The notes: generated by a model not told the origin, from the sequence alone. Shown: positions 3,113-19,765, numbered from the stretch's first letter. The stretch is DNA of 20,000 bases from an uncultured virus (IMG/VR IMGVR_UViG_2808606491_000002) (IMGVR_UViG_2808606491_000002), one strand, 5' to 3'. Numbers and translations are program-made.

Positions 3113-5410
3113 TCAGTTGTCCGAGTACGAGCTATAGGTCGGCATCGGCGGATTCTTCAGGCTCACACCACGGAAGCCCCGCAAACCCGCTGTGTTGCGC
3201 CATTTCTCGACCCCGCGGGTGATCAGCAGATCGGAGAAGCGCCTTTGCGATCCGACGAATTCGCCAGCCGAGTCAGCCCACTGTTTCCAGTCGTTGAACA
3301 ACTCGGCGGTCAGCGTCTTGGCGTTGATCTCTCGCACGCAGCGTTCGTCCAGCCAGCGACCCAGCGCGTCCTCGGCCTCGAAATACTCCTCCGTCGCATC
3401 CAGCACCTGTTGCGGCGGCTGGAGCCGTCCCAACCGCTGCCAGTCCAGGCAGCCCTGGATGGCCCACGCCAGGATGCCGTCCCGCTCGGCCAGCAGCTTC
3501 TGCTGCAAGGTCTTGTCCCGCCGCTCAGGCGGCACCGTCACCGTGAACGGGATCAGGTGCAGCCGCCGCTTCATCGCCTCGTCGATGTTGCGGATGGCCG
3601 GTTTGTGGTTGCCCGCGACGAACAGCTTGAACTGCGGGAAGAACTCGAAGAAGTCTTGCCGCATGAAGCGCGCGGAGATCTTGTCGCCGCCGGTGAGGTT
3701 CTTGACCTTGGATTCCGCCCAACGCCGTCCCTGCTCGGTCTCGATGGCCGCCACGAAGCGTGCGCCGCGCAGGCCCGCCATGTCGGTCGGATGCCGGTCG
3801 GCGCGCGTTTCCATGAACGTGTCCATCGCCGCGTTGACCGCGTAGTCGCCCAGAATCGTGGCCAGCGTGTTGACGAACACGGACTTGCCGTTGGCGCCCG
3901 TGCCGTAGAGGAAGAACAGCGCATGCTCCTGTGTCGACCCGGTCAGTGCGTAGCCCGCCATCCGCTGCAGGTAGGCCTGCAGTTCGGCATCACCGCCCGT
4001 AACCTCGGCGAGGAACTGCCGCCAGGTCGGGCAGTCGCCCTTAGGCGTCGCTGTGGTCACCTTCGTCATCCGGTCCTCGCGCCGATGCGCTCGCAACTGG
4101 CCCGTGCGCAGATCGACCACGCCGCCGGGGGTGTTGAGCGCCCACACGTCCGCATCCCACTCGTCGGCCGTGGCCGCGTGCTTGGGATCCGAGCGTGCGA
4201 TCTTCTCGACCGAGGCGATGGTCGATGAGCTCGCCAGCTTGGCCTTCTGCCGCGGCGTTTCCGCCTTGCACGAGGCCGCACGGCAGATCCCACGCGACAG
4301 GTGGGTGACGTAGAGCAGCTGGTCGGGATTCCACCGCACGCCGGTCCACACCAGCCACTTGCCCCACAGGGAGCAGTAGCGCCAGTCGTCGCCATAGCGG
4401 CGCGTGAAGGCCGTGGCCAGCCCGTCCTCGGTTTCCCAATCCACGCCCTCCAGCACGTCTGCCGACACGGTGTCGTCCACCTCCGGCACCACGGGCACCC
4501 GCGCGCCGGCGGCGAGGTAGCCGGCGACGTCGAACCCCTCTTCGATCGCGTCGGCTGCATCCCAGCCCTCCGCCTTGTCGTCCGGCGGCAGCAGGATGGT
4601 CACCGACAAGGCGCCCGCCTGCAGGATCGCCTGCGACGCCCGGTCGGCATACTCCCAGCCCGGCTTGTCCCGGTCGGGCCAGATCAGCACAGCCTTGCCG
4701 GCCAGGGGCGACCAGTCGGTCTTCTCGACGGGCGCGTTCGCCCCGTGCATCGCCGTCGTGGCAACGATGCCGGTGTCGATCAGGGCCTGGGCGCATTTCT
4801 CACCCTCGACCAGCACGACCTGCGTGGCGCTCGCCAGTCCGGGCTGGTTGTACAGCGGGCGTGGATCGGGCGGGGCCATCTTGCGCCGCTTGGCGTCCCA
4901 CGGCCGGAACTCCTTGCCCCGGCCGGGCGGGTCGTAGCGGTACACCACCCCGATCAGCCTGCCGGCGGCGTCCAGGTAGTCCCACTTGGCCGTCTCAGGG
5001 CCGAGGTCGTCCGTCGGCGGCTCCTTCCGCTTGCGCCGCACTGGCTGCGTGCTGGCGAGACCAAGCAGGTCAGCAGCGCGCGCCAGCACCCTCGGGAATT
5101 CCGTCTGCACATCGACACCCAGGGTGCCCGCGATCACGGCGAACACATCCCCGCCGTCGCCGGTGGCGCGGTCCGTCCACAAGCCGGCCTTCTCGCCGTC
5201 CAGCACGATTTCCAGGCTGTCGCCCGGATTGCCCTGGATGTCGCCGATCACGAACTTGTTCCGCCGCTTCTTGCCGGCCGGAAACAGGATGGCCAGCACC
5301 GAGTCCAGCCGGTCGAGCAGCAGGCCCCGGATGCGCTCCCGCTCCCCGTCCGAGGATGCGGGACGAGCGACCTCCCGGCCCTGCGGTGGGCTGTCATTGA
5401 AGTCGAGCAT
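3113..5410 (-). CDS. Phage/plasmid primase-helicase, P4 family (TOPRIM + D5_N + SF3 helicase), 765 aa
   Basis: TOPRIM motifs VLVEGEKCA and WPDRDKPG; D5_N-like LNTPGGVVDLRTG; Walker A YGTGANGKS; NLTGGDKISARFM; GNHKP; AMKRRL. Confidence 0.95.
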   Translation of the reverse strand: MLDFNDSPPQGREVARPASSDGERERIRGLLLDRLDSVLAILFPAGKKRRNKFVIGDIQGNPGDSLEIVLDGEKAGLWTDRATGDGGDVFAVIAGTLGVDVQTEFPRVLARAADLLGLASTQPVRRKRKEPPTDDLGPETAKWDYLDAAGRLIGVVYRYDPPGRGKEFRPWDAKRRKMAPPDPRPLYNQPGLASATQVVLVEGEKCAQALIDTGIVATTAMHGANAPVEKTDWSPLAGKAVLIWPDRDKPGWEYADRASQAILQAGALSVTILLPPDDKAEGWDAADAIEEGFDVAGYLAAGARVPVVPEVDDTVSADVLEGVDWETEDGLATAFTRRYGDDWRYCSLWGKWLVWTGVRWNPDQLLYVTHLSRGICRAASCKAETPRQKAKLASSSTIASVEKIARSDPKHAATADEWDADVWALNTPGGVVDLRTGQLRAHRREDRMTKVTTATPKGDCPTWRQFLAEVTGGDAELQAYLQRMAGYALTGSTQEHALFFLYGTGANGKSVFVNTLATILGDYAVNAAMDTFMETRADRHPTDMAGLRGARFVAAIETEQGRRWAESKVKNLTGGDKISARFMRQDFFEFFPQFKLFVAGNHKPAIRNIDEAMKRRLHLIPFTVTVPPERRDKTLQQKLLAERDGILAWAIQGCLDWQRLGRLQPPQQVLDATEEYFEAEDALGRWLDERCVREINAKTLTAELFNDWKQWADSAGEFVGSQRRFSDLLITRGVEKWRNTAGLRGFRGVSLKNPPMPTYSSYSDN

Positions 5411-5792
5411 GGACGCTCCGTTCTTGCAGTTCGTCAGGGGCCTCCAAGAGATAGCCGGTCTTGACCGCCACCTCGCGAACGAACGCGGGATTGAGGTCGA
5501 TCAGCCCAGCCACCTGTGCGAGATCGTCGCCGCGCAGGAAACGCTCTGCGTCCTCCTGCACGGACCGGTTCTCCCCATAACGGGCGTCGGCGATGGCCTG
5601 GCAGAGCACCGCCAAGATCAGGCGCTGCTCGGGCATGAGCCCTGTGACCGGCGCATTGACGTGGCGCTGCAGCAGCCGCTCCACGACTCGCATGGTCACC
5701 AGCGGGCGCGGACGCGCGGCCCGCCGGGTGCGGCGCGGATCGATGGCGCTGCGGGTTTTAGGGCGGGGATTGCGGTGATTGAAATCCAGCAT
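5394..5792 (-). CDS. Phage hypothetical protein, ~132 aa (alternative GTG start 5804)
   Basis: Fills the gap between two operon genes and overlaps the primase start; begins MLDFNH; contains RLILAVLCQAIADA...AERFL. Confidence 0.7.
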   Translation of the reverse strand: MLDFNHRNPRPKTRSAIDPRRTRRAARPRPLVTMRVVERLLQRHVNAPVTGLMPEQRLILAVLCQAIADARYGENRSVQEDAERFLRGDDLAQVAGLIDLNPAFVREVAVKTGYLLEAPDELQERSVHARLQ

Positions 5793-5797
5793 CTCGG

Positions 5798-6265
5798 TTA
5801 CCACGGAATGTCATCTTCCAAGTCGGCGAACGCATCCGCCGACAGTCCTACGGAACGCTTCTGCCCCATTGAGGTGGCCTGGGCGCGCGGCGCGTCGAGC
5901 GCCATCGCTTCCACATACGCGAACACGATGGCTCCGATCACCCGCAAGGCCTCGTCTTCGGCGTAGTGGGCCAGCGGCTTGTCGAAGCCGATCTCGCCGG
6001 CCACCTGCCCGAACGGTCGCAGGCATCGGCGCATCGCAGCACGCTGCTGCGCAGCGGTCTCAGGCATATGCGCCTCCCTCGTGAGTGATTCGGACAACGG
6101 CGGCTCGGTCTCGCGCCAAGCCCCGTAGATGGCGTGGAAGGCATCCTGGCAGCGGCGCGAGCAGAAGGCCCAGTCGGGCGGATGGCGACGCGGATCGCCC
6201 ACGCGGAAGCGCAGGTCCGAGTGCCGGTAGCCACGTGCTTGTTGGCGACAAACCCAGCATTGCAC
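5798..6265 (-). CDS. DUF6511-like protein with N-terminal Zn finger and acidic C-terminal tip, 155 aa
   Basis: GTG start with RBS GAGGAGG; CWVC...FCSRRC; IGFDKPLAHYAEDEAL; ends FADLEDDIPW. Confidence 0.8.
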   Translation of the reverse strand: MQCWVCRQQARGYRHSDLRFRVGDPRRHPPDWAFCSRRCQDAFHAIYGAWRETEPPLSESLTREAHMPETAAQQRAAMRRCLRPFGQVAGEIGFDKPLAHYAEDEALRVIGAIVFAYVEAMALDAPRAQATSMGQKRSVGLSADAFADLEDDIPW

Positions 6266-6274
6266 GGTCCCTCC

Positions 6275-6907
6275 TCACTGCGCCCACGCCGGGCGCGTGA
6301 AACCGGCCGCCGGCCGGGGTTGGGCGGCACGTGCCGGTGCCGACGCGGCAGGCGCGTGTGCGCGGCCGACACCGGCATTGGCGGCGTTCGCCGGCGGCGC
6401 GTTGCCGGCCATGAGCGCCACATAGTCTTTGTGGTTCGGCTCCACCGCCTGCCGGATCACGTTGCGGGCGTCGCCCCGGCTGTCGAGCTCGATGTCGACA
6501 CGGCCGATGAATTCCATGCCGTGAAGCTCACCGAAATCGCGGATACGTCGGGAGAGCTGGGCCGGCTCGGTGTTGTCGTCCGGGTGCACGCCACGCGCGG
6601 AGTTCAGCGCTGCACGCACAAACGCACGCCCCATGTTGGCCCACTCGTCCCCCTTGGGCGAATGCAGACCGATCATCGACCACAGCTTGCGCTTGGCGTA
6701 CGGCCCTTCGAGGACCACGAATTCGGCGGCGAGATACACACTGCCGGTGTGCTCGGATTCGGTGGCCCAGCCCCCCGTCCAGCCGCGGGACGGATCATCG
6801 AAGCCGCCCTGACGGATCGTCATGCGGATCTTGAGCAGCGTGCCCTTGGGGATCAGGTCAAAACCAACCTGCCGGCCGGCGTCGTTGAAATCGTTCCAAA
6901 ACGTCAT
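6275..6907 (-). CDS. Phage single-stranded DNA-binding-like protein (DUF669/gp2.5-like), 210 aa
   Basis: FDLIPKGT, YLAAEFVVLEGPYAKRKLW and an Ala/Pro-rich tail ending RPAWAQ; directly downstream of a Sak4-like ATPase, the usual pairing. Confidence 0.7.
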   Translation of the reverse strand: MTFWNDFNDAGRQVGFDLIPKGTLLKIRMTIRQGGFDDPSRGWTGGWATESEHTGSVYLAAEFVVLEGPYAKRKLWSMIGLHSPKGDEWANMGRAFVRAALNSARGVHPDDNTEPAQLSRRIRDFGELHGMEFIGRVDIELDSRGDARNVIRQAVEPNHKDYVALMAGNAPPANAANAGVGRAHAPAASAPARAAQPRPAAGFTRPAWAQ

Positions 6908-6925
6908 GATCAAAGCTCTCTGGTA

Positions 6926-7798
6926 TCAGGAAAAGTTCGGTTGGGTCGTGGCGCCGGCCAGCGGCACGGGCTTGCGGGGTGCAGCGGTCTTGGCGATCAA
7001 CTTGCCCAGGTGCGGCTCCTCCAGGGCATCCAGCCGGCCGGAGCGGTCCTTGGCCGGGTAGCCCCAGGCGTTGTCGGTATTGGTGACGAACGCTCGGAAC
7101 GGCTCTGCGGGCGCGGCGGCCGCGTCCCCTTCCGCCGGTGCGTCGGGGCGCAGCAGCGCCAGCGTGATCACCTCGTCGATGACGCCGGGCAACTCCAGCG
7201 CGGTCTTGCTGCCCTCGAGCTGGATCGCGAAAAACCGCCGGTTGAACTCATCGACCTTCTCTTCCAGAATCGCCACGAACACGACGTGCTTGTCGCGCAC
7301 GTGCTGCAGATGCGTAAGCGCCGCGATCATCTCGGTACCGAGCAGGCCGTAGGCACCCCGCGTGTCCGGCTTGCCAGTGCGCTCGGAGAACGCCTGCGGT
7401 TGCGTCTTGGCCCAGGCCAGGCACAGCCGGGACAGCACGGTGATCGAGTCCACGAAGTACGTGCTGTACTTCCGCAGTTGCGCCGGATCGCCATAGCGCT
7501 TGCACACCGCATCGAAATGCGCCTGCGAGTACGGCTGGTCGGGGCTGGCCGCCGGGTTGGGGCCTGCCAGGAACACGACCAGATCGCGGAACTCGGGCCA
7601 CGAGCGTGGGCGCAGCGTGTCGCCGTACCAGTCCAGCACCGCCAGGTCGCCCGCCTCCAGATCGACAAACAGGGTGCTGTCTTCGGGCAGCGTCTTGAGC
7701 TGGCTGGTCTTGCCCGCGCCGGGAATGCCGACCAGGACGATCTTGGCGCAGCGGGGCTCAGCCAGGCGCTGGTCTGCGCTGATGATGGGCAGCGTCAT
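6926..7798 (-). CDS. AAA_24 / Sak4-like phage ATPase (recombination/annealing), 290 aa
   Basis: Walker A GIPGAGKT, FVDLEAG, Walker B YFVDSIT, PAKDRSG. Start ATG 7798 with RBS GGAGG and ATGA overlap. Confidence 0.88.
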   Translation of the reverse strand: MTLPIISADQRLAEPRCAKIVLVGIPGAGKTSQLKTLPEDSTLFVDLEAGDLAVLDWYGDTLRPRSWPEFRDLVVFLAGPNPAASPDQPYSQAHFDAVCKRYGDPAQLRKYSTYFVDSITVLSRLCLAWAKTQPQAFSERTGKPDTRGAYGLLGTEMIAALTHLQHVRDKHVVFVAILEEKVDEFNRRFFAIQLEGSKTALELPGVIDEVITLALLRPDAPAEGDAAAAPAEPFRAFVTNTDNAWGYPAKDRSGRLDALEEPHLGKLIAKTAAPRKPVPLAGATTQPNFS

Positions 7799-8292
7799 TG
7801 CCATGCCTCCTGACCGGCGCGCACGACTTGCGGCTGCTCCAGCGTGAAGGTGGACTTGCCGGGGCGCACGGTACGAGCCGCCTCGAATTGCTTGCGGAAG
7901 ACGTCGGACCAGTTCTTGTACTTGTTCTCCGACACCTTGTAGGTGATGGTCATGTACTGCTCGGGGATGTCGCCCGAGGCGGCGATATTGCACGCCAGTT
8001 GCCTCAGCTTGGCCTGATCCCACACCACGTTGTTCACCAGTTCGCACTTCACGGTCTGGCCGTGGTCGTCAATGCGGACCGTGCCGTGGTCGCGGCCGGT
8101 TGCCAGAATGGCTTGGCGAGCCAGGTCGGCATAGCGCAGTTCATTGATCTGATCGGCGAATGCGCGCACCTCCTTGGTGAACGCGTGCAGTTGCTCGACT
8201 TGGGCGATGAACTGACGGTACGTGTCCAGCGGCGCCTCGGCGTAGTGCGCCGGGGGAAGGTGCATGGCGTGTTGGAGTGCGACGAGGTTCAT
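7795..8292 (-). CDS. Phage hypothetical protein, 165 aa
   Basis: Start ATG 8292 (RBS AAGGAG, ATGA overlap); GRDHGTVRIDD, VVWDQAKL, FEAARTVRPGKSTF. Confidence 0.78.
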   Translation of the reverse strand: MNLVALQHAMHLPPAHYAEAPLDTYRQFIAQVEQLHAFTKEVRAFADQINELRYADLARQAILATGRDHGTVRIDDHGQTVKCELVNNVVWDQAKLRQLACNIAASGDIPEQYMTITYKVSENKYKNWSDVFRKQFEAARTVRPGKSTFTLEQPQVVRAGQEAWQ

Positions 8293-8579
8293 TCTGCGGC
8301 TCCTTGCAGGTACTGGGCTGTGGCGGGTTGGCACGTGGCGATGTCACGCTCGGTTTCCTCGGACCGGCTGCTCGAGCTGGCGAACAGGTTCTCGAGCTCG
8401 AAGCGCTCGACGTCTTCCTGGCGGTACAGCACGGCACCGCCGATCTTGAGGAATCGCGGGCCGACACCGTCCGAGCGATAGCGTGCGATGGTGGCTTCGG
8501 CCTTGCCCCAGCGGAGGGCGAGGTCTCGCTGGGTCAGATGGGGACGCCTGGAGGCGTCGTGGGTCTGTTCAGACGACAT
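8289..8579 (-). CDS. Excisionase/AlpA-like winged HTH protein, 96 aa
   Basis: HLTQRDLALRWGKAEATIARYRSDGVGPRFLKIGGAVLYRQEDVERFE matches the MerR-superfamily/HTH_17 pattern. Confidence 0.88.
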   Translation of the reverse strand: MSSEQTHDASRRPHLTQRDLALRWGKAEATIARYRSDGVGPRFLKIGGAVLYRQEDVERFELENLFASSSSRSEETERDIATCQPATAQYLQGAAE

Positions 8580-8666
8580 GGAATCTTGCGTTCAAATGTG
8601 GATACACACCGGTTGCGAAGGCTTGCGCCAGCGCTGCAACCGATGTCCGTATCGTCTCGAACGGGA

Positions 8667-8916
8667 TTCCTCAGACCGTTCCTCAGATTCCTCAAACTCG
8701 TTCCTCAAATCGAATCTGTGTGGTCCAGATGCAAAAAAACCCGGTCTGATCGCGATCAGTACCGGGTTGCTGAGGTGGTTTGGGTGATGGGTGATCGGAA
8801 CGGCGTGACTGGTGCCAACCTGAGGAAAGCGCTCCTGAGCCTACCCAAGCCGGCCCCCTACAAGAGAGACCAGACGTTCCGAGCGTTCCTCAGATTCCTC
8901 AAACGAGTTCCTCGGA
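8667..8916. repeat. Duplicated clusters of TTCCTCA(G/A)A direct repeats (candidate operators)
   Basis: Units at 8667, 8679, 8688, 8701 and 8886, 8895, 8908 (variant); identical 21-mer CGTTCCTCAGATTCCTCAAAC at 8677-8697 and 8884-8904; an inverted unit at ~8820-8827. Confidence 0.85.
8733..8768 (-). terminator. Rho-independent terminator between the two repeat clusters
   Basis: Minus strand AACCCGGT-A-CTGATC-GC-GATCAG-ACCGGG-TTTTTTT. Confidence 0.75.
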
Positions 8917-9281
8917 CCGATTTGGGTTGTCCGGGCATCGGGTCCAAGTAGCCAAGCCGGCGGCAATGCCGCATGAAGCCCTCCCAGCTATCGCAGCGCA
9001 GCTACGATAGTAGCGGTGCCTGTGGGAGGGCCTGGGATCGTCCGTGAAGAACGGACGGAGGCCGAGTTCGGCCAGCTGCAGCCGCTCGCGAACACCGAAA
9101 AGCAGGAAGATGAAAAACCGCAGCAAGCGCGAAAGCTGACATTAACGTTTGACATGAGCGGCTGCAGGCGCTGGTGACAACGGACCATCTGCCTGCTGTC
9201 ACTGACCGCGCCAGTTGGTGCTGACCGAGCGACCGGTCACGTTGGCGTCGCTGGCGGCTTGTCAGATGATTTCCCCATGAC

Positions 9282-9310
9282 GCCCGGGCTTCGCACCGGG
9301 CTTTCCTTCT
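9282..9310 (+). terminator. Terminator-like hairpin
   Basis: GCCCGG-GCTTCGCA-CCGGGC-TTTCCTTCT just beyond the stop of 9317-9973. Confidence 0.4.
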
Positions 9311-9316
9311 GCTGCG

Positions 9317-9973
9317 TCACGGCTCGACTACCACAGTGATGACGACATGCGGCACCGCGTCATCGAAAACCTGCTGTACGGCAACATTCCGATTGGGCCA
9401 GTCGTCAGGGTTGGGCAACCGTCCAGGCTCACACAAGTGCACGAACACCGCTCCATGCTTCGGCCCGAGCACGCCCTCTGCGACTTCAACAACCCCCGTG
9501 AACGAGCTTCGGTCGCAGACAGCACCGGAGCCGTGTCCCGCATAGCCGCCGAGGTTCTCCACGCCTTGAAATACACCACCCAATGGTTGCTTCTTGCGCC
9601 GTCCGAACTTCTCCCCGAAGCTCTTGACGTGCAACGTCCCGTCCAAGTGGTAGCTCGTGTGAGGGTCCCAGTCCTTGCAGCCGCGCGGGACCATCACGAA
9701 GAACTCACCCTTCCTTGATCGCCTGACCCACAACGTCAGCCAAAGATCACCGCCATCCTTAATAGCGACCGCGTAACGGCTTTCTCCAGACTGCAGTACG
9801 GACAGCTTCATCAGTCCAACTTTCGGTGCAGCCTCCGCCCGCGTTCTAGACTCTTCGAACAACTCACGCCACGTCTCGAGCTGCTCCGCACTCAGCGCGG
9901 TCGGATCGATCGCCTGAAACGTCATCCAGCCCTCAAATGTCTTCAGATCGTCTTCGCTGATGAAGGCCGACAT
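9317..9973 (-). CDS. Hypothetical cargo protein, 218 aa, with His-rich motif
   Basis: Start ATG 9973 with RBS GGGAGGT; globular, beta-rich sequence; motif PHTSYHLDGTLHVK. Confidence 0.8.
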   Translation of the reverse strand: MSAFISEDDLKTFEGWMTFQAIDPTALSAEQLETWRELFEESRTRAEAAPKVGLMKLSVLQSGESRYAVAIKDGGDLWLTLWVRRSRKGEFFVMVPRGCKDWDPHTSYHLDGTLHVKSFGEKFGRRKKQPLGGVFQGVENLGGYAGHGSGAVCDRSSFTGVVEVAEGVLGPKHGAVFVHLCEPGRLPNPDDWPNRNVAVQQVFDDAVPHVVITVVVEP

Positions 9974-10105
9974 GTTACCTCCCGCGTTCGCTGTGAATTG
10001 AGGTAAGGCGCCCCGCGCGCGCACTTGGAGGTTGAGCGGACAGCGCCTCTTTCAGGAAATGAAAAATTTGCTTGAATTTCGCGAGTGAACCATGCATTTC
10101 GTATG

Positions 10106-10759
10106 CTATGCATCCTTCCATGTGGCATGTAGCCAATCTTCAGCCTGAATCAGGTTCTTCTGACGAAGCTCTTCATATCGCAAACCATTGCGGATAACGT
10201 CGAGCAGCGCATTACCATCACTCGACATGATGAAGTGCTCGTACCCGACCTCGCTATCGTGATAGTGCGCTTCGATCTTGTTCATGTAGATTCGGAGCAG
10301 AGACAGGGCATCTTCAATCATTTGCCGAGAAATGCCAGGAAGCGGATCTGGGCTCGATTTCATCGAAGTTGTAAGATCAAGGTGGGCGAGTTGCTTGTTT
10401 CTCCAGATCCTGAACGGTTTGCACTTATCGTGAAGCTCGTCGAGCATCGGGCGCATCTGCCTCGCTACACTCTGATCGCCGTATTTTTTCAGTTGAAGCT
10501 GAAGGTGTTCGAGCGATAGATTGGCGTGCTTGCCCCTGCATGCAGGATCCGTGAGCTTACTGAGGGTGATTTGCACATCACCAATGAGTAGGTCTTGAAT
10601 TATGTAGAAGAATGCCGAGGCGCACTCATTGAGCATGTCGATCCGTCTGGTCGATTCACCGAATAGCTGCCTGTACACGATCCATCGACCATGAAGCCAA
10701 GTAACCTCAGTTTTGAGCGCTTCGTAGACTTCGGCGATACGTGCGGGAATCGTGGTCAT
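10106..10759 (-). CDS. HEPN-domain protein, AbiU2-like (putative RNase), 217 aa
   Basis: Start re-assigned to ATG 10759 (MTTIPAR). All-helical; LSKLTDP...NLSL; HEPN R-x5-H motif WRNKQLAHLD. Confidence 0.75.
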   Translation of the reverse strand: MTTIPARIAEVYEALKTEVTWLHGRWIVYRQLFGESTRRIDMLNECASAFFYIIQDLLIGDVQITLSKLTDPACRGKHANLSLEHLQLQLKKYGDQSVARQMRPMLDELHDKCKPFRIWRNKQLAHLDLTTSMKSSPDPLPGISRQMIEDALSLLRIYMNKIEAHYHDSEVGYEHFIMSSDGNALLDVIRNGLRYEELRQKNLIQAEDWLHATWKDA

Positions 10760-11096
10760 TATTTGGCTTCTCGGGGTATTGCGACTGGATGCCTGATGAT
10801 TGACACGTGCAGCGTAAAGAAACTGCAGGCCGCGCAGCACTTGTCTTACTGCCAATGGAGAATTGCGGCCCAAAGGACAGGGAGGCGAATCATCCGGACC
10901 GCAACCTTTGGAGCTTCCGTTGAGAGCATCTCCGCTGGCCTTGGCAGAAGGGTGCGGCAATGACTCCCCACGCCAATGAAGGCCAGTGCGCAAATCTTGC
11001 ACAAAAAAGTGCGAGAGTCCTGCATTTGTACGCTCGCAAAATGCAAGCGTTCTGGCTGCAATCCTCTTGCTAGCCTCCCAATATAGCACTTGGGAG

Positions 11097-11273
11097 GATG
11101 CAGGCTATGGGGCGCACACCATGCGTCGGACCAAAGCATCGCTGATTTACCGCCGCACGAAAAACCTACGGGCGGTACAGTTACTCGGTCACACGAAGCT
11201 CGAAAGCATGGTGCGATACCTCGGCATCGAGGTCAACGATGCGCTCGAGATCGCAGAACAGACGGAGGTTTGA
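11097..11273 (+). pseudogene. C-terminal remnant of a small tyrosine recombinase/integrase
   Basis: YGAHTMRRTKASLIYRRTKNLRAVQLLGHTKLESMVRYLGIEVNDALEIAEQTEV has H-x-x-R, LGH and the catalytic Tyr. The N-terminal part with the first Arg is missing, and one Leu of the usual QLLLGH is lost. Confidence 0.88.
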
Positions 11274-11281
11274 GCCAAGGT

Positions 11282-11313
11282 TGGCCGGACAGTGACTGGG
11301 CACTGTCCGGCCA
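11282..11313. repeat. Perfect 13-bp inverted repeat directly after the recombinase stop
   Basis: TGGCCGGACAGTG-ACTGGG-CACTGTCCGGCCA. Confidence 0.85.
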
Positions 11314-11461
11314 GTTGCGGTCACTCGACACTGACTCTAAGATCGTTGACAATCAACGGGCAGTTGCAGGCGGATGTCATGCCAGCATGCGGTGCGCGGG
11401 ATAGCCATTGCTGCGGGAGCGGCGAAAGCCGAGGTACACACAACAAACTCTGGAGTTCATT

Positions 11462-12742
11462 GTGACACTAGAAGTGATACATCGAACCGCGGACGTCTAC
11501 GGGATTGGGCGCGAGTTGCCGCTCAACTATGTATCTCGCAAAGCTGTAGACGAACACTTCGTCGCAAATCTCACGCGCGACAAGCACGTCATCATTTACG
11601 GCAGTTCCAAGCAAGGTAAAACGTCTCTTCGCAAGCATTGCCTTCAAGATGACGACTATATCGTCGTTCATTGTTCCAACAAGTGGGGGATAGCAGACCT
11701 TCACTCCGCGATTTTAAAGCGCGTCGGTTATGAGGTAACGCAAGCGTCAACGCGCACAACTTCTGGCCGGAACAAGATCGTTGCGGCATTTAAAGCTAGG
11801 ATTCTCGGCGTAGGAGTCGAGGCAACAGGCGAGCAGGAAGAGTCAAAGACGAACGCAGTTACTACTGCCCCACTTGAGCTCGATCCAGAGGACGTAAACG
11901 ATATCATCTCCGCCCTCAATGGGTTCTCTAAGTTCATTGTTCTTGAAGATTTTCACTATCTTCCCATCGATACGCAGAAAGATTTCTCGGTTGCGCTCAA
12001 AGCATTCCACGAGCAATCAAAGCTATGCTTTATCATCGTCGGCGTCTGGTTGGAGGAAGGACGTCTCACTGTCTACAATGGCGACTTGACGGGGCGTATC
12101 GTTGGAGTTAATGCGGATAAATGGACTAGAGAAGAACTTCGCGATGTCATCGCTGCTGGCGAAGCACTTCTTAATATTTCATTCGCATCTTCTTTCAAGA
12201 ATGCAGTCATTGGTGGCTGCCTAGACAGCGTCTATATTGTTCAGGAGGCTTGCTATCAGGCGTGCGTGAGGGAAGGCATTAGCGCCACTCAGGATGAATT
12301 GCATCAGGACGTCGGAAAGGATGTAGATGTTTCTTCCCTAATTAGGGAGGTCGTAAATCAGCAGACTGGGCGATACAATTCGTTCATTACGCTCTTCGCA
12401 ACCGGCTTCCAGGAAACTACTCTGCAAATGTACAAGTGGCTTCTATATCCAATTCTTACGGAAAAAGTCAACACTCTGGAAGCTGGCCTGACTTATCGCA
12501 ATTTGCGCGATATCTTGCGCAAGCATCACCCGGAAGGTGTTGCCCTAAACATCGGGAACCTCACTCAGGCGCTTCAGTCCACCGCCTCACTCCAAGTTAA
12601 GAAAGAGATCAAACCAATCGTGCTGGATTATGACCAGACGAATCTCAAGCTCAACGTGGTTGATCGGGGCTTTCTTATCTGGCTCGGAAATCAGGATCGT
12701 AAGGAGTTGCTGGAACTCGCGGACCTCCCCACGGCCGCTTAG
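11462..12742 (+). CDS. P-loop NTPase (AAA+/STAND-like) with probable C-terminal winged helix, ~426 aa
   Basis: GTG 11462 with RBS GGAG (ORF is open from 11408). YVSR pre-P-loop motif, Walker A YGSSKQGKTS, Walker B FIVLEDFH; visibly lower GC than the prophage core. Confidence 0.85.
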   Translation: MTLEVIHRTADVYGIGRELPLNYVSRKAVDEHFVANLTRDKHVIIYGSSKQGKTSLRKHCLQDDDYIVVHCSNKWGIADLHSAILKRVGYEVTQASTRTTSGRNKIVAAFKARILGVGVEATGEQEESKTNAVTTAPLELDPEDVNDIISALNGFSKFIVLEDFHYLPIDTQKDFSVALKAFHEQSKLCFIIVGVWLEEGRLTVYNGDLTGRIVGVNADKWTREELRDVIAAGEALLNISFASSFKNAVIGGCLDSVYIVQEACYQACVREGISATQDELHQDVGKDVDVSSLIREVVNQQTGRYNSFITLFATGFQETTLQMYKWLLYPILTEKVNTLEAGLTYRNLRDILRKHHPEGVALNIGNLTQALQSTASLQVKKEIKPIVLDYDQTNLKLNVVDRGFLIWLGNQDRKELLELADLPTAA

Positions 12743-12956
12743 CCGGGCGACTAAACCCTCCCGGGCTGCTGCACCGGTTATTCTGGGCCTTCGAGCGACC
12801 GCTTGCTGCGGACACGGACTGACTGTTACAGGTCGTTTAGCGACGCTGCCCCCGCAGCAGGTCGGCGAGGAACCCCAAGATTCGCCTGGCCTGATTGCTA
12901 TCGAAGCTTGGCTAGAGGGCCGTTTGCCCTGTGAAGCCGGTGATGCATCACTGCAG

Positions 12957-13931
12957 TTACCCCAGCCACTCCCTGTCCCCGTCGGGAATGATGAGTGCGT
13001 AGCGGTCGTCATCTCGCAGATAGCGGATGAAGGTCTTGTAGGCGACCAGGTTCCGGTCGAACTCTTTGCTCGGGGAGAACCGTTGCGCCTGCGAGCCACA
13101 AGCGGTCTTGAGCGCCTCCTTGCCCATCTCGTGATCGAGATCACTGATCAGGGCGAGCAGTATCGCCTGCTGGCGCGGCTCCAGCGTATATTCGGCGCCC
13201 TCGATGAAGGCTTTGCCCAGCGTGCGCACGTAGCGCAGAGTAGTCTGCCCCCTCGCCTGCGGTTGAGCCTCTTCAACCTGCTGCGCCCCCAACTCAGCCT
13301 GCCGGTCCGCAAAGAACTCGAAGCGGCTCTGGCCAATCCGCGCGACACTGCGAAGCGTGCGCACGTCGAAGCCCGTCAGCGGTGAGCCGATGGGCAATGG
13401 GAGGTCGCTGCTGGTCAGCACCACGCAGGAAGCGCCAGTGCGCTCGAGCTGGATCTGCTCGCGCAACCGCGCACCGACCTCCGGCCGCCCAAGCTGTCGG
13501 GCGAAATACCACGTCAGCGGCTTACCTCGCGTCGGCTCCGTCGTGCCCAACCGCCATACCCGATCGGGCTCAATGACTTTCATGCCGCCGGCGTTCATCC
13601 CCAGCCCGCTCAACACGGCTGCGACGGCCCGCGCCGGCACCGCCTTGTACGTTTCCCGCAGACGACGCGACGCGTCAACATCCTCGCATTCCGGGCAAAG
13701 CAGTGCGATCCGGTCGGCCGACACATCGCGCACCACCCGTGCGAGTTCCGAGCAGCACTCCGGACAGTTGACCCAGTCCAGCGGGTGGCCTACCACCAGC
13801 AGCCGCTCGCGCAGCAGATGCGTCGCAGCCTCCGCCCCCGCGTCGAACAGGGCCTGGCCGTTGTATTCGGGCTTATCGCGCTCCAGCAGCCGGCATAGCA
13901 ACACCGTGGCATCAACCTGAGCCTGACTCAT
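12957..13931 (-). CDS. Uncharacterised phage protein with Zn ribbon and predicted C-terminal winged HTH, 324 aa
   Basis: CPECC...CPEC; C-terminus AFIEGAEYTLEPRQQAILLAL...MGKEALKTACGS resembles an OmpR/PhoB-type DNA-binding domain; ATGA overlap with the upstream gene. Confidence 0.8.
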   Translation of the reverse strand: MSQAQVDATVLLCRLLERDKPEYNGQALFDAGAEAATHLLRERLLVVGHPLDWVNCPECCSELARVVRDVSADRIALLCPECEDVDASRRLRETYKAVPARAVAAVLSGLGMNAGGMKVIEPDRVWRLGTTEPTRGKPLTWYFARQLGRPEVGARLREQIQLERTGASCVVLTSSDLPLPIGSPLTGFDVRTLRSVARIGQSRFEFFADRQAELGAQQVEEAQPQARGQTTLRYVRTLGKAFIEGAEYTLEPRQQAILLALISDLDHEMGKEALKTACGSQAQRFSPSKEFDRNLVAYKTFIRYLRDDDRYALIIPDGDREWLG

Positions 13932-15214
13932 GCGATTGCGGCCCCCCTGGGCACCAGCGCGGCCTCGTCCTCCGCGTCGATCACCATCAGCGCCTGCAGA
14001 ACCTTGCGGGCCAGCACCTGGTTTCTCAGCGACAGGTTTTTGATAGTAGACACGCCCGAAGCACGGATGTTGAAGCTGAAGTGGCCGGCGCGGCCGCCAT
14101 CGGCCACCTGCGTGTAGACGATGACGGTCGCAGCGTCGAGGTGATATTCAGCCTCGAACATATGCTCGACTTTGAGCGCCGCGCGGGCGATGCGGATTGC
14201 GTCACCCTGGGCCTTGTCGGGGGAAGCCTCGACGGTGAAGCTAACGCCCGCGATGCCCACTGGCGTCAGGCGTGCGCGGCGCAGACGGACCATTTCCACA
14301 CCGTAGGCCGACCAGTCCTCGTAGGGCTGCAGGCCGTCACGCAAAGCGTTGAGGTGGTAGCGCTGCGGCTCGATCCGCTCGGGGGCAAGATCCTGCTGGA
14401 CGACATGCTTGCCAAACAGTTCCAGCATCGCGGTGTGGTTCTTGGCGCCGCCCTTGACGACGGTTTCCACTTCGCCGGTCGCCGGATGGTAGACCAGCGC
14501 CGACTCCAGCGCGACGCGTGTGGTGACGCGGGTGAAATGGCTCTGCGAGAAGTGTGTCAGCGCGGTCACCGGCCCCTCGACATAGAGGGTCAGCTGGAAA
14601 CTGGACATGGCATTCGACACGCCTGAAGCGCATCGCCGTTCGGAGAGCTCGATGTGCACGCCGTCGCCGCCGCCGGACTTCTTGTACAGCTGCGCCACGG
14701 CGTGGCAGAACTGTTCAAGCCGCGTGCGTTCGTGCGTCAGCTCGAGGCCGCGCTGGATGCGGTGTTTCTTCCAGAACTTGCCGCTGGTCTTCGCCCGAAA
14801 GGCCAGGTGCAGTTCAACGTCGCGGAAAATCTTGTCGCGGAATGCCAGCATCCACAGCGCGATCTCTCGTTCGTCACGGGAGGCAAATGCCTCCAGCGCA
14901 TCGGGATCGTCCTGGCATGCGCGCCGGAACTCGACCCCCGCGAGCCCGTTGGCCATCAGGTGGGCCCGCCGCAGGTCATCGGACCAGAGCAACAGATCGT
15001 GCTCAAGTGCTTCGCGGTCGCGTGGGGAGAGATCGGTGGTGGCAACTTGGTGCGCCAACGCCTCAACCGCGTAGCAAAGCGCCCCCGACAAGGTGTCGTC
15101 CGGCCCGGACCAGTCCACCACCAGACGCGGCGCCAGCACATGCGCCTGCACGAACTCATGCAGCGCGCGCGCCGCGATGTGCCTCAGAAAATGCCGGGCA
15201 TTGAAAACCTTCAC
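13928..15214 (-). CDS. Uncharacterised phage protein, 428 aa
   Basis: Long ORF with GTG start, coupled to 12957-13931; no catalytic motif recognised. Confidence 0.8.
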   Translation of the reverse strand: MKVFNARHFLRHIAARALHEFVQAHVLAPRLVVDWSGPDDTLSGALCYAVEALAHQVATTDLSPRDREALEHDLLLWSDDLRRAHLMANGLAGVEFRRACQDDPDALEAFASRDEREIALWMLAFRDKIFRDVELHLAFRAKTSGKFWKKHRIQRGLELTHERTRLEQFCHAVAQLYKKSGGGDGVHIELSERRCASGVSNAMSSFQLTLYVEGPVTALTHFSQSHFTRVTTRVALESALVYHPATGEVETVVKGGAKNHTAMLELFGKHVVQQDLAPERIEPQRYHLNALRDGLQPYEDWSAYGVEMVRLRRARLTPVGIAGVSFTVEASPDKAQGDAIRIARAALKVEHMFEAEYHLDAATVIVYTQVADGGRAGHFSFNIRASGVSTIKNLSLRNQVLARKVLQALMVIDAEDEAALVPRGAAIA

Positions 15215-15360: not shown

Positions 15361-16534
15361 GGATAGTGTTCAAAACTCCCGCAAGCGCGGGCAGTCGAAG
15401 GAAGGTTCGCAACGCTGGATGAACCCATGAAACAAAGCGACCTTGGCCTGGACCTGAGCAACCGACGCACGCGCAAGCAGGTATTTCTGGATGAGATGGA
15501 ACGTGTGGTGCCGTGGCAGGCGTTTTTGGCGTTGATAGCGCCGCATGCGCCGGTCAAGGCGACGGGTCGGAAGCCGTTTCCAGTCGAAACGATGCTGCGC
15601 ATCCACTTTCTGCAGCAATGGTTCGGGCTGACGGACGTGGCGATGGAAGAGGCGCTGTACGACGTGCCGTTGTATCGGCAATTCGCGGGGCTGGGAGGCA
15701 TAAGCCGACTGCCGGACCGGGTCAGCATTCTGCGCTTTCGGCACTTGCTGGAGCGACACCAGTTAGCCGAGCAATTTCTGCAGACCGTCAACGCGCAACT
15801 CAGTGCGAAGGGCTACCTGCTCAAAGAGGGCACGGTGGTCGACGCCTCGCTGATTGCCGCGCCCAGTTCGACCAAGAATGGCAGCGGCAAGCGTGACCCA
15901 GAGATGCACCAGACCAAGAAAGGTAACCAGTGGCATTTCGGCATGAAAGCGCACATTGGTGTGGATGCGGACTCGGGGCTGGTGCACACCGTAGTGGGCA
16001 CGGCCGCCAACGTCAACGACGTGACGCAAGCGCACGCATTGGTGCATGGCAAGGAGGCCGACGTGTTCGGCGATGCCGGCTATCAGGGCATCGACAAGCG
16101 CGAAGAGGTGCAGGAGTTGAAGGTGCGTTGGCATGTGGCATTACGCCCGGGCAAACGCCGCGCCTTGGACAAGAGCACCGTGTCGGGTGCGCTCGTCGAT
16201 GAGCTGGAGCGGGTCAAGGCGCGCATTCGTGCCCGCGTGGAACATCCGTTCCGAGTCATCAAGCGCCAGTTTGGGCACTTGAGGGTGCGCTATCGAGGCT
16301 TGATAAAGAACACACAGCAATTACACACGCTGTTTGCCCTGAGCAATCTGTGGATGATGCGCGGGCGACTGATGCGTGAGGCCCGCGCATGAAGGAAAAC
16401 CGCCCCGAGCAGGCGGGAATCGGCCTCTCCATGCTGCGCGTAGCGTTCCGTTCGCGTCAGGCTTCGCATCGTCTGTTACGCATCCGCTTCGCTTCGATGA
16501 CTCAGTTCGACGGAATGAGTTCTGAACACCATCC
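15361..16534 (+). mobile_element. IS5-family insertion sequence, IS1405-like (1174 bp)
   Basis: 18-bp IRs GGATAGTGTTCAAAACTC / GAGTTCTGAACACCATCC (16/18); TSD CTAA at 15357-15360 and 16535-16538. Length and 321-aa transposase match my recollection of IS1405. Confidence 0.93.
15427..16392 (+). CDS. IS5-family DDE transposase, 321 aa
   Basis: GTVVDASLIAAPSSTKN, WHFGMKAHIGVD, VFGDAGY, RARVEHPFRVIK. Confidence 0.97.
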   Translation: MKQSDLGLDLSNRRTRKQVFLDEMERVVPWQAFLALIAPHAPVKATGRKPFPVETMLRIHFLQQWFGLTDVAMEEALYDVPLYRQFAGLGGISRLPDRVSILRFRHLLERHQLAEQFLQTVNAQLSAKGYLLKEGTVVDASLIAAPSSTKNGSGKRDPEMHQTKKGNQWHFGMKAHIGVDADSGLVHTVVGTAANVNDVTQAHALVHGKEADVFGDAGYQGIDKREEVQELKVRWHVALRPGKRRALDKSTVSGALVDELERVKARIRARVEHPFRVIKRQFGHLRVRYRGLIKNTQQLHTLFALSNLWMMRGRLMREARA

Positions 16535-16726
16535 CTAAGAAACAGTAAATTGCAAGGAATGAAGATACCTCTCAGCAGAAACAGGAAGAGAGGGGACTTG
16601 GAGCGGCGCACGTGATCCGAATCCGGCCAACGATTCACAAATTTTTTCAACTGGTGTAGCGAAAGCGCGGAATCCTGTGAGAACCTGCCTGCCCAACCCC
16701 CTCGCTCCTCTAGGGCGAGCCTCCAG

Positions 16727-16755
16727 CGCCCACGTCCGCCGTGGGCGATTTTTTT
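16727..16755 (+). terminator. Rho-independent terminator
   Basis: CGCCCACG-TCCGC-CGTGGGCG-ATTTTTTT. Confidence 0.7.
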
Positions 16756-16839
16756 CAGTGCGCGGTCACTGCCCCGTAGCTTCCACCATGACCCGACTCC
16801 CGAAATCGCCCCATCGGACACCCTGAACCCTCGGACGCG

Positions 16840-17166
16840 CTAAACGGCGATCGCGGTCAGAGCCTTGTCCATACTAAAAATCTTCGTCGAACCGGATGCG
16901 GTAACCACCGCGAATGCCTTGGTTTTCGCATAGGTGCCTTGGGGTCGTTGCTCATTGTCCCATTCCGTGGTCACATCGACGGCTTTCTCGGCGGGCCAAT
17001 TCGTCGCTGCGCAGTAACGCCTATAGATGTCCAGCACGTCCGTTCTTTCAGATCCAGAGAGGCGGCTGCCGGGCGGAGTAGCTTCCCTTATCCTGTTAAA
17101 GTGTTCTTTCGCGGCCGTGAGTGTCCCAAAAACAGTGCCACTCTCGACGGTTACCTGTTTTGCCAT
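16840..17166 (-). CDS. DCL/DUF3223-like small protein, 108 aa
   Basis: Start ATG 17166 with RBS GAGGT. FGTLTAAKEHFNRI... and AFAVVTASGSTKIFSMDKAL resemble the DUF3223 pattern (FxVVRxDGSxxDFSYxKC). Confidence 0.6.
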   Translation of the reverse strand: MAKQVTVESGTVFGTLTAAKEHFNRIREATPPGSRLSGSERTDVLDIYRRYCAATNWPAEKAVDVTTEWDNEQRPQGTYAKTKAFAVVTASGSTKIFSMDKALTAIAV

Positions 17167-17343
17167 TTCGACCTCATCTACGTTGCGACATGGTAGCGGC
17201 GGCTCGGTCGGCCACTCGTCTTTTCCTAGTAGTTCCAGATGTTCAGACCTACCTCGGCGCCGTTGGCCGGGCACAGTTTCCATCGTGGAGTTCGCACATC
17301 CCGCGACGCTAGCTCGTGCAAACTTGTTCATTCGGGTACGATG

Positions 17344-17392
17344 GAAAGTACCTCGCTGAAACGAGGTACCCTCTGTTGGTTGAGGTACTTTC
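17344..17392. promoter_or_regulatory. Nested inverted repeats built on GAGGTAC (candidate operator)
   Basis: GAAAGTACCTC (17344-17354) / GAGGTACTTTC (17382-17392), plus an internal CGAGGTAC (17362-17369). Confidence 0.45.
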
Positions 17393-17470
17393 ACCTGTCA
17401 CATTTGCTGGAGAGCCGGCAAAGGCTCTGGCACCGAGAACTTACCTTCGATGTTGGCGGTCGGCAATTTT

Positions 17471-17887
17471 CTACACGCTGGGACAGTTCGTAACCGGATC
17501 GGTACAGAGTTTTTCCCTCAGTTCGATGATCCTGGCGTTGTGCGCATCAATATCGCATTGATAGGCAGAAAGGGGCGCCATTTGGCCCTTGTTAGGATCG
17601 ATATAAGCGTCACAGTTGACCCGCTCAAATTTCTGCCATGCCAGCTGGGACTTTCGCAAGGCCGCCCGGCGCGAGGCTGGCAAGCTCTTGAGCGTTTGAC
17701 TATAAACTACATTCATTTCTTTCTTCAGCCTGTTGATCTCCGCACTACTACACGCTTTCATCGCCATAAGATTGGTGCTTTGCTTGTTCGTACAGTCAGA
17801 GGCTGGAACATCCTTTTCGGCGGCACCAGCCGAAGCGCACATAGCTAGAGCAAACAAACCACTAGAGAGGATCCAACTCTTTTTCAT
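17471..17887 (-). CDS. Secreted lysozyme-inhibitor LprI (DUF1311) family protein, 138 aa
   Basis: Signal peptide MKKSWILSSGLFALAMCASAGA; C...MKAC...MNVVY...LRKSQLAWQKFERVNC...C; RBS AAGGAG. Confidence 0.85.
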   Translation of the reverse strand: MKKSWILSSGLFALAMCASAGAAEKDVPASDCTNKQSTNLMAMKACSSAEINRLKKEMNVVYSQTLKSLPASRRAALRKSQLAWQKFERVNCDAYIDPNKGQMAPLSAYQCDIDAHNARIIELREKLCTDPVTNCPSV

Positions 17888-17995
17888 TTTGATCTCCTTT
17901 CGGCTTCCGGCCGTACGTGCGCATCTCGCGCTAGGTTTTTTCCTGTTCTTGAGCGTTCGTGATCAAGAGTGCAATTTTGCGAGCAATTCCCCTAG

Positions 17996-19203: not shown

Positions 19204-19765
19204 CTAGCGCCGGAAGGAAAGGCGCAACGATGCTCATATGAGCAGCAGCGGACGAAATGAAGGCCTGATAATTTTTCCCGAATGACACTTTGTCATCTTT
19301 TGCGGACTCCATATGTCCTATTGCCTTCAAAATTTCCAACCTATCAGTAGCGTTTCCGATTTTATCCTCAATCGTTTGTCGCATCTTCTGAAACAGGTCA
19401 CTGTCGGTGACAAGGTTGACTGAATGATCGTTGGAATGAATGTTCACCCGCGCATTATTTCCACTAACGCTCACTGAATAGTGACCGCCCGTGTTCTTTT
19501 CGACCACTTTTGGACGCGAAACCTTCACTTGGTAGTGCGGCCCAAATGGGCCACTACTGTAGAAGGTTGGATCGTCTACAGTGAACACTTCCTCCTTACC
19601 ATTAGGCAATTGCCGACGGATCTCGTCGCCAAGTCGAATGTCGGCGCTCGTGTCGGAAACCAAGATCATGCTACCGGTGAACGCCCCCTTCACGCGGCAG
19701 CGAATTTCCCCCGCAGGCGATACGACTTCCATGTCCTCTTGCTTAACCAATCCGGGCAGACTCAT
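19193..19765 (-). CDS. Hypothetical protein whose extreme C-terminus is replaced by IS sequence (original 3' end at 17963-17995)
   Basis: RBS GGAGG. The present end LPALGKR* terminates inside the IS; removing the IS restores LPALGELLAKLHS* (196 aa, stop at 17963-17965). Confidence 0.8.
   Translation of the reverse strand: MSLPGLVKQEDMEVVSPAGEIRCRVKGAFTGSMILVSDTSADIRLGDEIRRQLPNGKEEVFTVDDPTFYSSGPFGPHYQVKVSRPKVVEKNTGGHYSVSVSGNNARVNIHSNDHSVNLVTDSDLFQKMRQTIEDKIGNATDRLEILKAIGHMESAKDDKVSFGKNYQAFISSAAAHMSIVAPFLPALGKR

Follow-up and report, generated by a model that had tools for sequence, protein, structure and literature searches.

A two-spacer cassette slot in a Ralstonia prophage-like element and its probable small tyrosine recombinase

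Organization of the variable slot

We analyzed a 20,000-nucleotide stretch of DNA from an uncultured virus (IMG/VR IMGVR_UViG_2808606491_000002; hereafter, the window), which includes a prophage-like element with a variable slot (coordinates 9075-12829) of lower G+C content (0.51-0.59) than its flanks (0.64-0.65). The slot contains a gene coding for a 219-amino-acid protein, a HEPN_AbiU2 gene, a tyrosine recombinase remnant made up of 60 codons from the 3' end of the gene, and a PDC-S59 nucleoside triphosphatase (NTPase) gene. The flanks have 83-97% identity to megaplasmids of the Ralstonia solanacearum complex, and the host of the element is therefore probably a member of that complex. An initial annotation of the window had proposed a decayed, non-integron cassette slot of a tyrosine recombinase, and this reading is borne out by the comparisons below: the bracketing motif is tied to a recombinase family, slot alleles change cargo at the sites, and one allele (L182) carries a near-complete recombinase gene.

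The sites consist of two ~14-bp arms around a 6-bp spacer and fall into two classes, G (spacer CGGCCA) and A (CGACCC, or GGGTCG when read from the opposite strand). A 14-6-14 register fits best, with one consensus, NNWGCRGHCRYTCG, describing both arms; a 7-bp spacer, our first reading, was dropped because the 6-bp register fits better. At 212 sites, the side left out of a half-site model carries the mirror-image G-n-C (0.74 and 0.81), and the site is thus a dyad. Many strong arms (353 of 496) have a center that is neither G nor A, and for 163 of these a G or A site is no more than 120 bp away. Since no other center recurs more than six times, we rejected the idea of a third spacer class and kept such arms as accessory arms. 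The features of the slot and its borders are as follows.

9055-9088, plus strand: left border site, class G, with spacer CGGCCA at 9069-9074 and cargo-side arm at 9075-9088 (21.0 bits); slot alleles break here, and a contig of sequencing run X16 departs from the window at 9074
9132-9145, plus strand: accessory arm, 57 bp inward of the left G site (11.5 bits; recurring offset)
9155-9168, minus strand: lone arm with no adjoining G or A spacer, possibly a decayed site (8.0 bits; offset of 94, non-recurring)
9226-9239, minus strand: lone arm with no adjoining G or A spacer (8.1 bits; offset of 165, non-recurring)
9317-9976, minus strand: cargo gene, 219 amino acids, conserved family (871 homologues at E<=0.001, ~60% identity)
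10106-10759, minus strand: cargo gene with a HEPN_AbiU2 domain, defense-like (PF18734, E=2.7e-16, above cut-off)
11094-11273, plus strand: 3' recombinase remnant, residues 149-208 (tblastn, 87% identity to an intact copy; DNA homology to 79 intact genes begins at 11093-11130)
11282-11313, plus strand: hairpin past the recombinase stop codon, its right arm overlapping the G site (RNA fold z=-3.6)
11294-11327, plus strand: internal class G site, spacer CGGCCA at 11308-11313, downstream site of the recombinase unit (24.8 bits; same position in 56/80 intact loci)
11342-11353, plus strand: leader motif ATCGTTGACAAT following the G site; 19/221 G sites and 0/160 A sites have it at a distance of 34-38 bases from the spacer
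11459-12742, plus strand: cargo gene coding for a P-loop NTPase, candidate defense family PDC-S59 (PADLOC PDLC05049, E=3e-73)
12792-12805, minus strand: accessory arm, 24 bp inward of the right A site (11.1 bits; recurring offset)
12816-12849, minus strand: right border site, class A, spacer AGGTCG on the plus strand at 12830-12835, one change from GGGTCG (19.1 bits); allele homology resumes here

The full-site model thus identifies three sites at >=13 bits in the window, with spacers at 9069 (G), 11308 (G), and 12830 (A), whereas 20 shuffles gave a mean of 0.05. A half-site model, trained solely on recombinase-flanking sites from other genomes, finds two sites at >=14 bits in 9001-12900, compared with a mean of 0.01 (maximum of 1) in 200 shuffles. 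The 16/20 match between 11308-11327 and 9069-9088 that first drew attention to the locus is correct, as are the exact inverse relationships of 9156-9167 to 9076-9087 and of 9118-9129 to 12800-12811, although the 12-mer at 9118-9129 does not score as an arm. What had been taken for a single arm family is indeed a set of related sites, but two spacer classes alternate in place of one motif. The NTPase gene is bracketed as proposed, but its right border is the A site with spacer at 12830-12835, outside the range first described, and the arm at 12792-12805 is accessory. The region 9060-9240, which had been described as a stack of empty slots, has one full site and three lone or accessory arms (9132+, 9168-, and 9239-), with four arms scoring >=8 bits compared with a shuffle mean of 0.37.

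Accessory arms recur at fixed offsets inside the cargo ends, at 23 or 24 bp in 31/158 A sites and at 56 or 57 bp in 27/219 G sites, where the mean is ~0.5 per offset. Eight bases separate the lone arm at 9155-9168 from another arm-like word (9177-9190) that it faces, and together they may represent a decayed site whose center is non-standard. In sequencing run X15, two contig ends with matching inverted termini depart from the window inside the A spacer (12831-12835), a pattern resembling that of an insertion sequence inserted in the A site. The ATCGTTGACAAT motif is possibly a -35 box or operator; a scan for promoters and terminators gave no excess over shuffles.

A site family accompanies a small tyrosine recombinase

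Using an intact homologue of the recombinase (L006, 208 amino acids) as the query, we found matches in at least 555 genome stretches, from which 79 loci were fetched; the gene is present in 27 of 78 genomes of one genus and, at E<=1e-30, in 411 plasmid records of alpha-, beta-, and gammaproteobacteria. Intact members are ~208 amino acids long, with R59, K87, H156, R159, H182, and Y191 invariant in 19/19, and the homologue matches PF00589 at E=1.2e-20. The predicted structure is a lone catalytic domain with 21 disordered residues at its start (predicted local distance difference test score of 78), and its top Foldseek matches are XerA, XerH, and Cre; the profile aligns to XerD over 153 versus 152 residues with no long insertion. 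All named NCBIfam families score far below cut-off, and the protein is annotated solely as 'integrase'.

In 56 of 80 loci the site motif lies just past the recombinase stop codon, and in 59 of 79 an inverted copy directly precedes the start codon. Further sites are frequent nearby: with the recombinase genes' own sites excluded, there are 213 at 14 bits in 1.006 Mb of flanking DNA, or 2.12 per 10 kb; the density is 0.05 in shuffled DNA and, over 100 kb of Ralstonia megaplasmid DNA, 0.20. Around 30 phage-type and 20 integron integrases of related genomes there is one site each (0.10 and 0.13 per 10 kb), whereas the same model finds 7.8 sites per 10 kb near the small recombinase, a training-set figure that is not independent. 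Spacer sequences change with recombinase clade. By comparison of genomes, then, the motif constitutes a site family linked to this recombinase family. A CCGGCCA word in the 5' end of the gene, ~55 bases from the match start, also scores as a G site in some loci (L016, L027, L028, L032, and L042), but is probably a coding coincidence of a conserved LTGQ motif.

The window remnant retains only the catalytic H, R, H, and Y; the 5' part of the gene is missing, with no upstream piece found by tblastn, as is the A site upstream of it. A stem of at least 9 bp follows the stop codon in 57/79 intact loci, compared with 2/79 inside the gene; because its sequence differs between clades, the hairpin is probably an RNA element.

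Alternation of two site classes

The 391 sites that we classified include 187 G and 132 A sites in their predominant orientations (G+ and A-), together with 34 G-, 28 A+, and 10 untyped. Neighboring sites up to 1.5 kb apart have opposite orientations in 155 of 213 pairs. Intervals running from a G site to an inverted A site (G>..<A; n=77) are gene-sized and never contain the recombinase (0/77), whereas those from A to G (A<..>G; n=77) contain the recombinase in 34 cases, are 33-34 bp in 16, and 67-70 bp in seven; the 33-bp linker is simply two abutting arms. Among 52 Burkholderiaceae and Alcaligenaceae loci, grouped by record title, 233/241 typed sites are G+ or A-, and the recombinase is flanked A/G in 29 of the 30 fully typed loci. 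Cargo open reading frames (ORFs) are directed from G to A in 40/60 units.

Arrays of unrelated cargo with defined sites were found in L006, L117, L003, and L004. The metagenomic array in L117 (1590-5760) has at least six short cargos, coding for an NTPase, LprI, a barstar-like protein, and unassigned products, separated by 33-78-bp linkers, with no recombinase within 6 kb. Near-identical 77-78-bp linkers in this array carry TGCTATGCT, an extended -10-like word directed toward the next cargo, and these linkers may be plug-in promoters.

Slot alleles and recurrence of cargo

Six alleles of the slot were compared: that of the window (shared with L090), L001/L005, L002, L003, L004, and L182, with L001 and L005 having identical cargo content apart from an added IS5 in one. 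In most of these, homology to the window breaks in or beside the spacers. On the left it ends at 9074 (L001/L005), 9075 (L004), and 9087/9088 (L003/L002), and on the right it resumes at 12831 (L004) and 12834 (L001/L005), with the arms of different alleles merely 36-79% alike. L182 has the layout G>GNAT<A[recombinase in two frames]G>cargo<A, with the near-complete recombinase between its own two sites, an arrangement expected of the window when it still had its inner A site.

Two cargos, the 1.68-kb cargo of L004 and the 1.46-kb cargo of L003, recur at ~92% identity in unrelated places in strain CFBP2957, and both have left ends within a G spacer; one has its right end inside an A-like spacer. 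A 76-bp linker recurs at 93-99% identity, spacer to spacer, between unrelated cargos. In an all-against-all comparison of 85 loci, few cargos are shared, and 13 of 58 alignment ends are near sites on both sides, 12 of these coming from the Ralstonia alleles. By comparison of sequences, then, the site classes alternate and the breakpoints lie in spacers. No flipped segment was found among the six slot alleles or in the contigs of four sequencing runs, although some Pseudomonas units carry like spacers at both ends and could flip.

A model for cassette exchange and its alternatives

We think it probable that the slot is a platform for two-spacer cassette exchange, in which like recombines with like, run by a dedicated tyrosine recombinase of ~208 amino acids. 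We predict that the two related arms bind the enzyme and that the class of the 6-bp spacer sets the permitted partner. The alternating sites would divide the DNA into modules of two sorts, with cargo between G and A (G>gene<A) and linkers between A and G (A<...>G). A linker module would be a stretch of 33 bp or ~68-77 bp, the recombinase gene itself, or the prophage backbone. Recombination of G with G, or of A with A, would excise or insert a circle of cargo plus linker, and two such events would swap one cargo for another between fixed borders as a natural form of cassette exchange; accessory arms inside the cargo ends would probably bind extra enzyme and favor one direction. That this enzyme cuts the sites, and that recombination occurs by this spacer rule, we infer from sequence comparisons. 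The window array would formerly have been G>cargo<A[recombinase]G>NTPase<A, with its inner A site and the 5' portion of the recombinase gene since lost to a deletion. As read from what is left of it, the window copy is decayed, and with those parts gone the slot would now need the enzyme in trans.

Several observations weigh against this model. At the slot itself, border spacers differ among the alleles, L002 has no clear right site (its homology resumes at 12916), the right flank of L003 is rearranged, and flank homology in L002 and L182 stops 80-280 bp from the border spacer. One of the four moved-cargo ends changes spacer, being A-like in L003 and reversed-G-like in L181, and that cargo's right end stops two to three bases before the class-changed spacer. 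In G457, a 1478-bp recombinase-bearing unit is repeated three times with a G spacer on its right and no site on its left. The recombinase flanks in 13 Pseudomonas loci are mixed (G/G in four, A/A in three, G/A in one, and A/G in one), so spacer class is not tied to module end there. Homologues of the NTPase gene have an upstream site in 3/34 and a downstream site in 3/33 assessable loci (n=41), indicating that this gene is mostly found outside the two-site system. No intact recombinase was found in four allele-bearing megaplasmids or in G001, where chromosomes were not searched. The spacer-length test (506 matches at 6 bp, 166 at 5, 227 at 7, and 65 in shuffled DNA) used a model built in the 6-bp register and is not fully independent. 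Contigs of the four runs have no G-by-G deletion joint between the window's two G sites, although contigs lose rare forms and this absence therefore shows nothing.

The alternative that survives best, which we nonetheless consider unlikely, keeps the same enzyme and sites but has single modules moving alone in the manner of tyrosine-recombinase transposons, with ends joined across mismatched spacers, much as in the coupling sequences of Tn916-like elements. The recombinase unit would be an autonomous element of insertion-sequence size and the cargos its non-autonomous relatives. The mixed spacers at Pseudomonas genes, the moved cargo with a changed end, and the variable borders all fit such a scheme, as does the recombinase unit by itself being 83% conserved, core to core, between Ralstonia and Achromobacter. 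However, cargo modules are almost always parted by a linker or the gene, even if only by a minimal 33-bp linker, and neither the A/G polarity in 29/30 loci nor the kept orientation of the NTPase gene (in L101 and L117, as in the window, a G site precedes the gene and an A site follows it; L113 has the A site) would be expected if spacers were exchanged freely.

A host recombinase, XerC/XerD or another, could instead target the sites as in the pdif modules of plasmids, with the small recombinase a passenger module. The layout matches that of pdif modules (PMC9455709), and both the L117 array, with no gene copy in 6 kb, and the four megaplasmids without an intact copy would be explained. We regard this as improbable, since no word resembling the consensus XerD-type arm was found near the three window sites, one consensus serves both arms, and the spacers co-vary with the clade of the small recombinase, whose catalytic residues are invariant. 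Marginally less probable still is that the repeats are operators or promoters and that cargo exchange comes about through homologous or illegitimate recombination making incidental use of them. Promoter-like words in some linkers and leaders (L117, and ATCGTTGACAAT in its 19 G sites) and the predominant G-to-A direction of cargo ORFs suit a regulatory role, but the breakpoints fall within a few bases of the 6-bp spacer, and the 14-6-14 dyad with an asymmetric center is the layout of a tyrosine-recombinase site. Arms that are 36-79% alike also have too little similarity for RecA-type exchange. Chance matches in GC-rich DNA might account for the lone arms (9168- and 9239-) and the 12-mer at 9118, which have no family counterpart, and for a 14-bit half-site match in the backbone at 13789, but the enrichment over shuffles, background, and other integrase loci, together with the allele breakpoints, refutes this for the three full sites and leaves it a negligible prospect overall.

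Comparison with other recombination systems

The pdif modules of Acinetobacter plasmids are recombined by the host XerC/XerD (PMC9455709 and PMC13141974). They resemble the two-spacer system in having inversely oriented flanking sites, two alternating module types, a 6-bp center, identical modules in different contexts, and diverse cargo. In contrast, the sites described here differ in sequence from pdif sites and lack an XerD-type arm, their dedicated recombinase forms a module of its own, spacers of two classes recur, linkers can be as short as 33 bp or ~70 bp, and accessory arms are present. The system occurs across beta- and gammaproteobacteria, and homologues of the recombinase extend to alphaproteobacteria. 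It is organized like pdif modules but with its own probable enzyme and, by its sequence features, is neither a XerC/XerD pdif system nor an integron.

Like an integron, the system places a tyrosine recombinase beside unrelated, mostly single-gene cargo of lower G+C content (GNAT, glyoxalase, LprI, HNH, and Abi), but each cargo has two sites of different classes rather than one attC, and arrays extend on both sides of the gene. The recombinase scores 27.2 bits against TIGR02249 (cut-off of 265), and matches an IntI over just a 36-residue box II segment. The attC consensus is RYYYAAC ... GTTRRRY, and no such pair 30-140 bp apart was found on either strand of 9001-12900, a search by consensus without a covariance-model scan. 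IntI proteins have a specific insertion in the catalytic domain, according to the available part of PMC8138268; the same text, supplements aside, has no subgroup matching the catalytic-only family. This insertion is absent from the recombinase, both in the XerD profile alignment and in its compact predicted catalytic domain.

Invertases of the FimB/FimE type are ~200 amino acids long. Together with Rci, the shufflon recombinase (PMC8138268), they share with this system a small recombinase and inverted sites. The score against the Fim-type family NF007371 is 25.5 (cut-off of 222), and unlike in the Fim and Rci systems, cargo in the Burkholderiaceae loci keeps its G-to-A orientation and is replaced rather than flipped. 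Recombinase-mediated cassette exchange is a laboratory design using heterospecific lox or FRT pairs. In both that design and this system, two non-matching spacers allow replacement by double exchange, although here the logic is deduced from natural arrays.

Relationship to the P2 Z/fun locus

Enterobacterial homologues of the recombinase, in Pantoea and on Escherichia coli plasmids, are 62% identical to it, and the three examined all lie between 9-6-9 sites whose spacers are TCGCTC and GTGCCA. The fun(Z) gene of phage P2 is flanked by the same two sites in the same order. In GenBank records AJ512685 and AJ512677, a 9-6-9 site ends the annotated left inverted repeat and another begins the right one; the annotated repeats are 91-113 bp, and no enzyme is named. 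On the arm model derived from Burkholderiales, scores of the enterobacterial and P2 arms reach 15 bits, although some are near or below zero, and the window spacers (CGGCCA and AGGTCG) differ from the P2-type spacers. The two loci have in common variable cargo between two fixed prophage borders, anti-phage cargo, and an arm consensus, and differ in spacers, phage group, and host. As judged by this comparison, the window sites are a betaproteobacterial sister of the P2 Z/fun sites. We also observed a homologue that is found, always with the same score, on several plasmids of E. coli and Klebsiella (L137 and H55-H60); P2-type sites surround it, and the L137 copy is near an IS26.

Nilsson, Karlsson, and Haggard-Ljungquist (2004; doi 10.1093/molbev/msg223) reportedly proposed site-specific recombination at the P2 Z/fun inverted repeats. 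Their work on Z/fun is cited in PMC9122126, PMC6379469, PMC13748975, and PMC13100340. The system had been thought to lack a formal description, and we found none for this pairing of recombinase and sites, although our view did not extend to subscription journals or bioRxiv supplements and its absence from print is unproven; the portions available of PMC13552941 and PMC3091744 do not describe it, and a term search of preprint 10.64898/2026.02.24.707731 gave no match. The enterobacterial form of the sites, however, is partly in print, inside the repeats annotated around P2 Z/fun.

On balance, we lean slightly toward regarding this as a third general cassette platform in Proteobacteria, beside integrons and pdif, with a cassette-borne, catalytic-only tyrosine recombinase, two-spacer exchange, and plug-in linker or promoter modules. 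It would stock prophage defense slots from Ralstonia to P2 Z/fun, include integron-like arrays without a resident enzyme, and supply the missing recombinase of the P2 variable locus. By naming an enzyme family and its sites, it offers a testable answer to how unrelated defense genes are swapped with base precision in prophage hotspots such as P2 Z/fun. The site model would allow cassettes to be delimited and mined for new defense genes, as has been done with attC, and a 208-amino-acid recombinase with naturally orthogonal spacers would be a compact tool for cassette exchange. The interest lies in the system that the decayed window copy exposes.

Cargo genes

Five of the six slot alleles have a defense-like match, L002 being the exception. 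These labels, assigned as family matches, are PDC-S59 and AbiU2 in the window, PD-T7-3-like and PDC-S31-like in L001, nSTAND1 in L003, and HEC-04 in L004, with ThiF/DUF6791 (having weak E1-E2 matches) and a zeta toxin in L182. The L182 cargo operon (9087-11029 of that record, in the same slot) codes for Multi_ubiq, DUF6791-ThiF, and DUF6527 domains, and we take it to resemble bacterial ubiquitination-like operons. The proposal that the system loads defense-like genes thus holds for this prophage slot but not across the family: of 85 ORFs taken by a mechanical rule from 70 cargo units outside the slot, ~10 have defense-like Pfam domains and nine have PADLOC matches, three of which are WYL or ParA-like. 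The others include GNAT, glyoxalase, LprI, hydrolases, and unassigned products, and by these matches, cargo family-wide is mostly not defense.

Within the window, the 219-amino-acid protein has no Pfam, PADLOC, NCBIfam, PHROG, or Atlas assignment. A search for the NTPase in 401 genomes of the order Burkholderiales gave one distant match.

Prophage-like backbone and neighboring features

The slot lies between two conserved segments of the prophage-like element.

3113-9054, minus strand: left backbone, including a primase, a Sak4-like annealing protein, and an excisionase-like gene (PHROG matches; 89-93% identity to other Ralstonia records)
12850-15214, minus strand: right backbone, two conserved genes with function unassigned (83-97% identity to other Ralstonia records; phrog_37634)

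Upstream of the excisionase-like gene is a 43-bp direct repeat (8671-8713 and 8878-8920; 84%) with TTCCTCA units, which is kept in the alleles and is possibly an operator or origin. To the right of the backbone is a second variable stretch (15427-19765) without a full site of the G/A family scored, containing a HamC-like gene (16840-17394; PADLOC E=5e-7) and an LprI gene (17471-17887); the ORFs at 15427-16392 and 18083-19069 are, we presume from their motifs, IS5-like transposases.

A phage collection searched with the slot gave no match. Viral scans identified one true relative, L090/L175, carrying the window's own allele; the remaining loci (5/6 and 35/36) were chance pattern matches and were dropped. 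The exact slot is present in sequencing runs from soil, wetland, food-fermentation, and single-organism studies.

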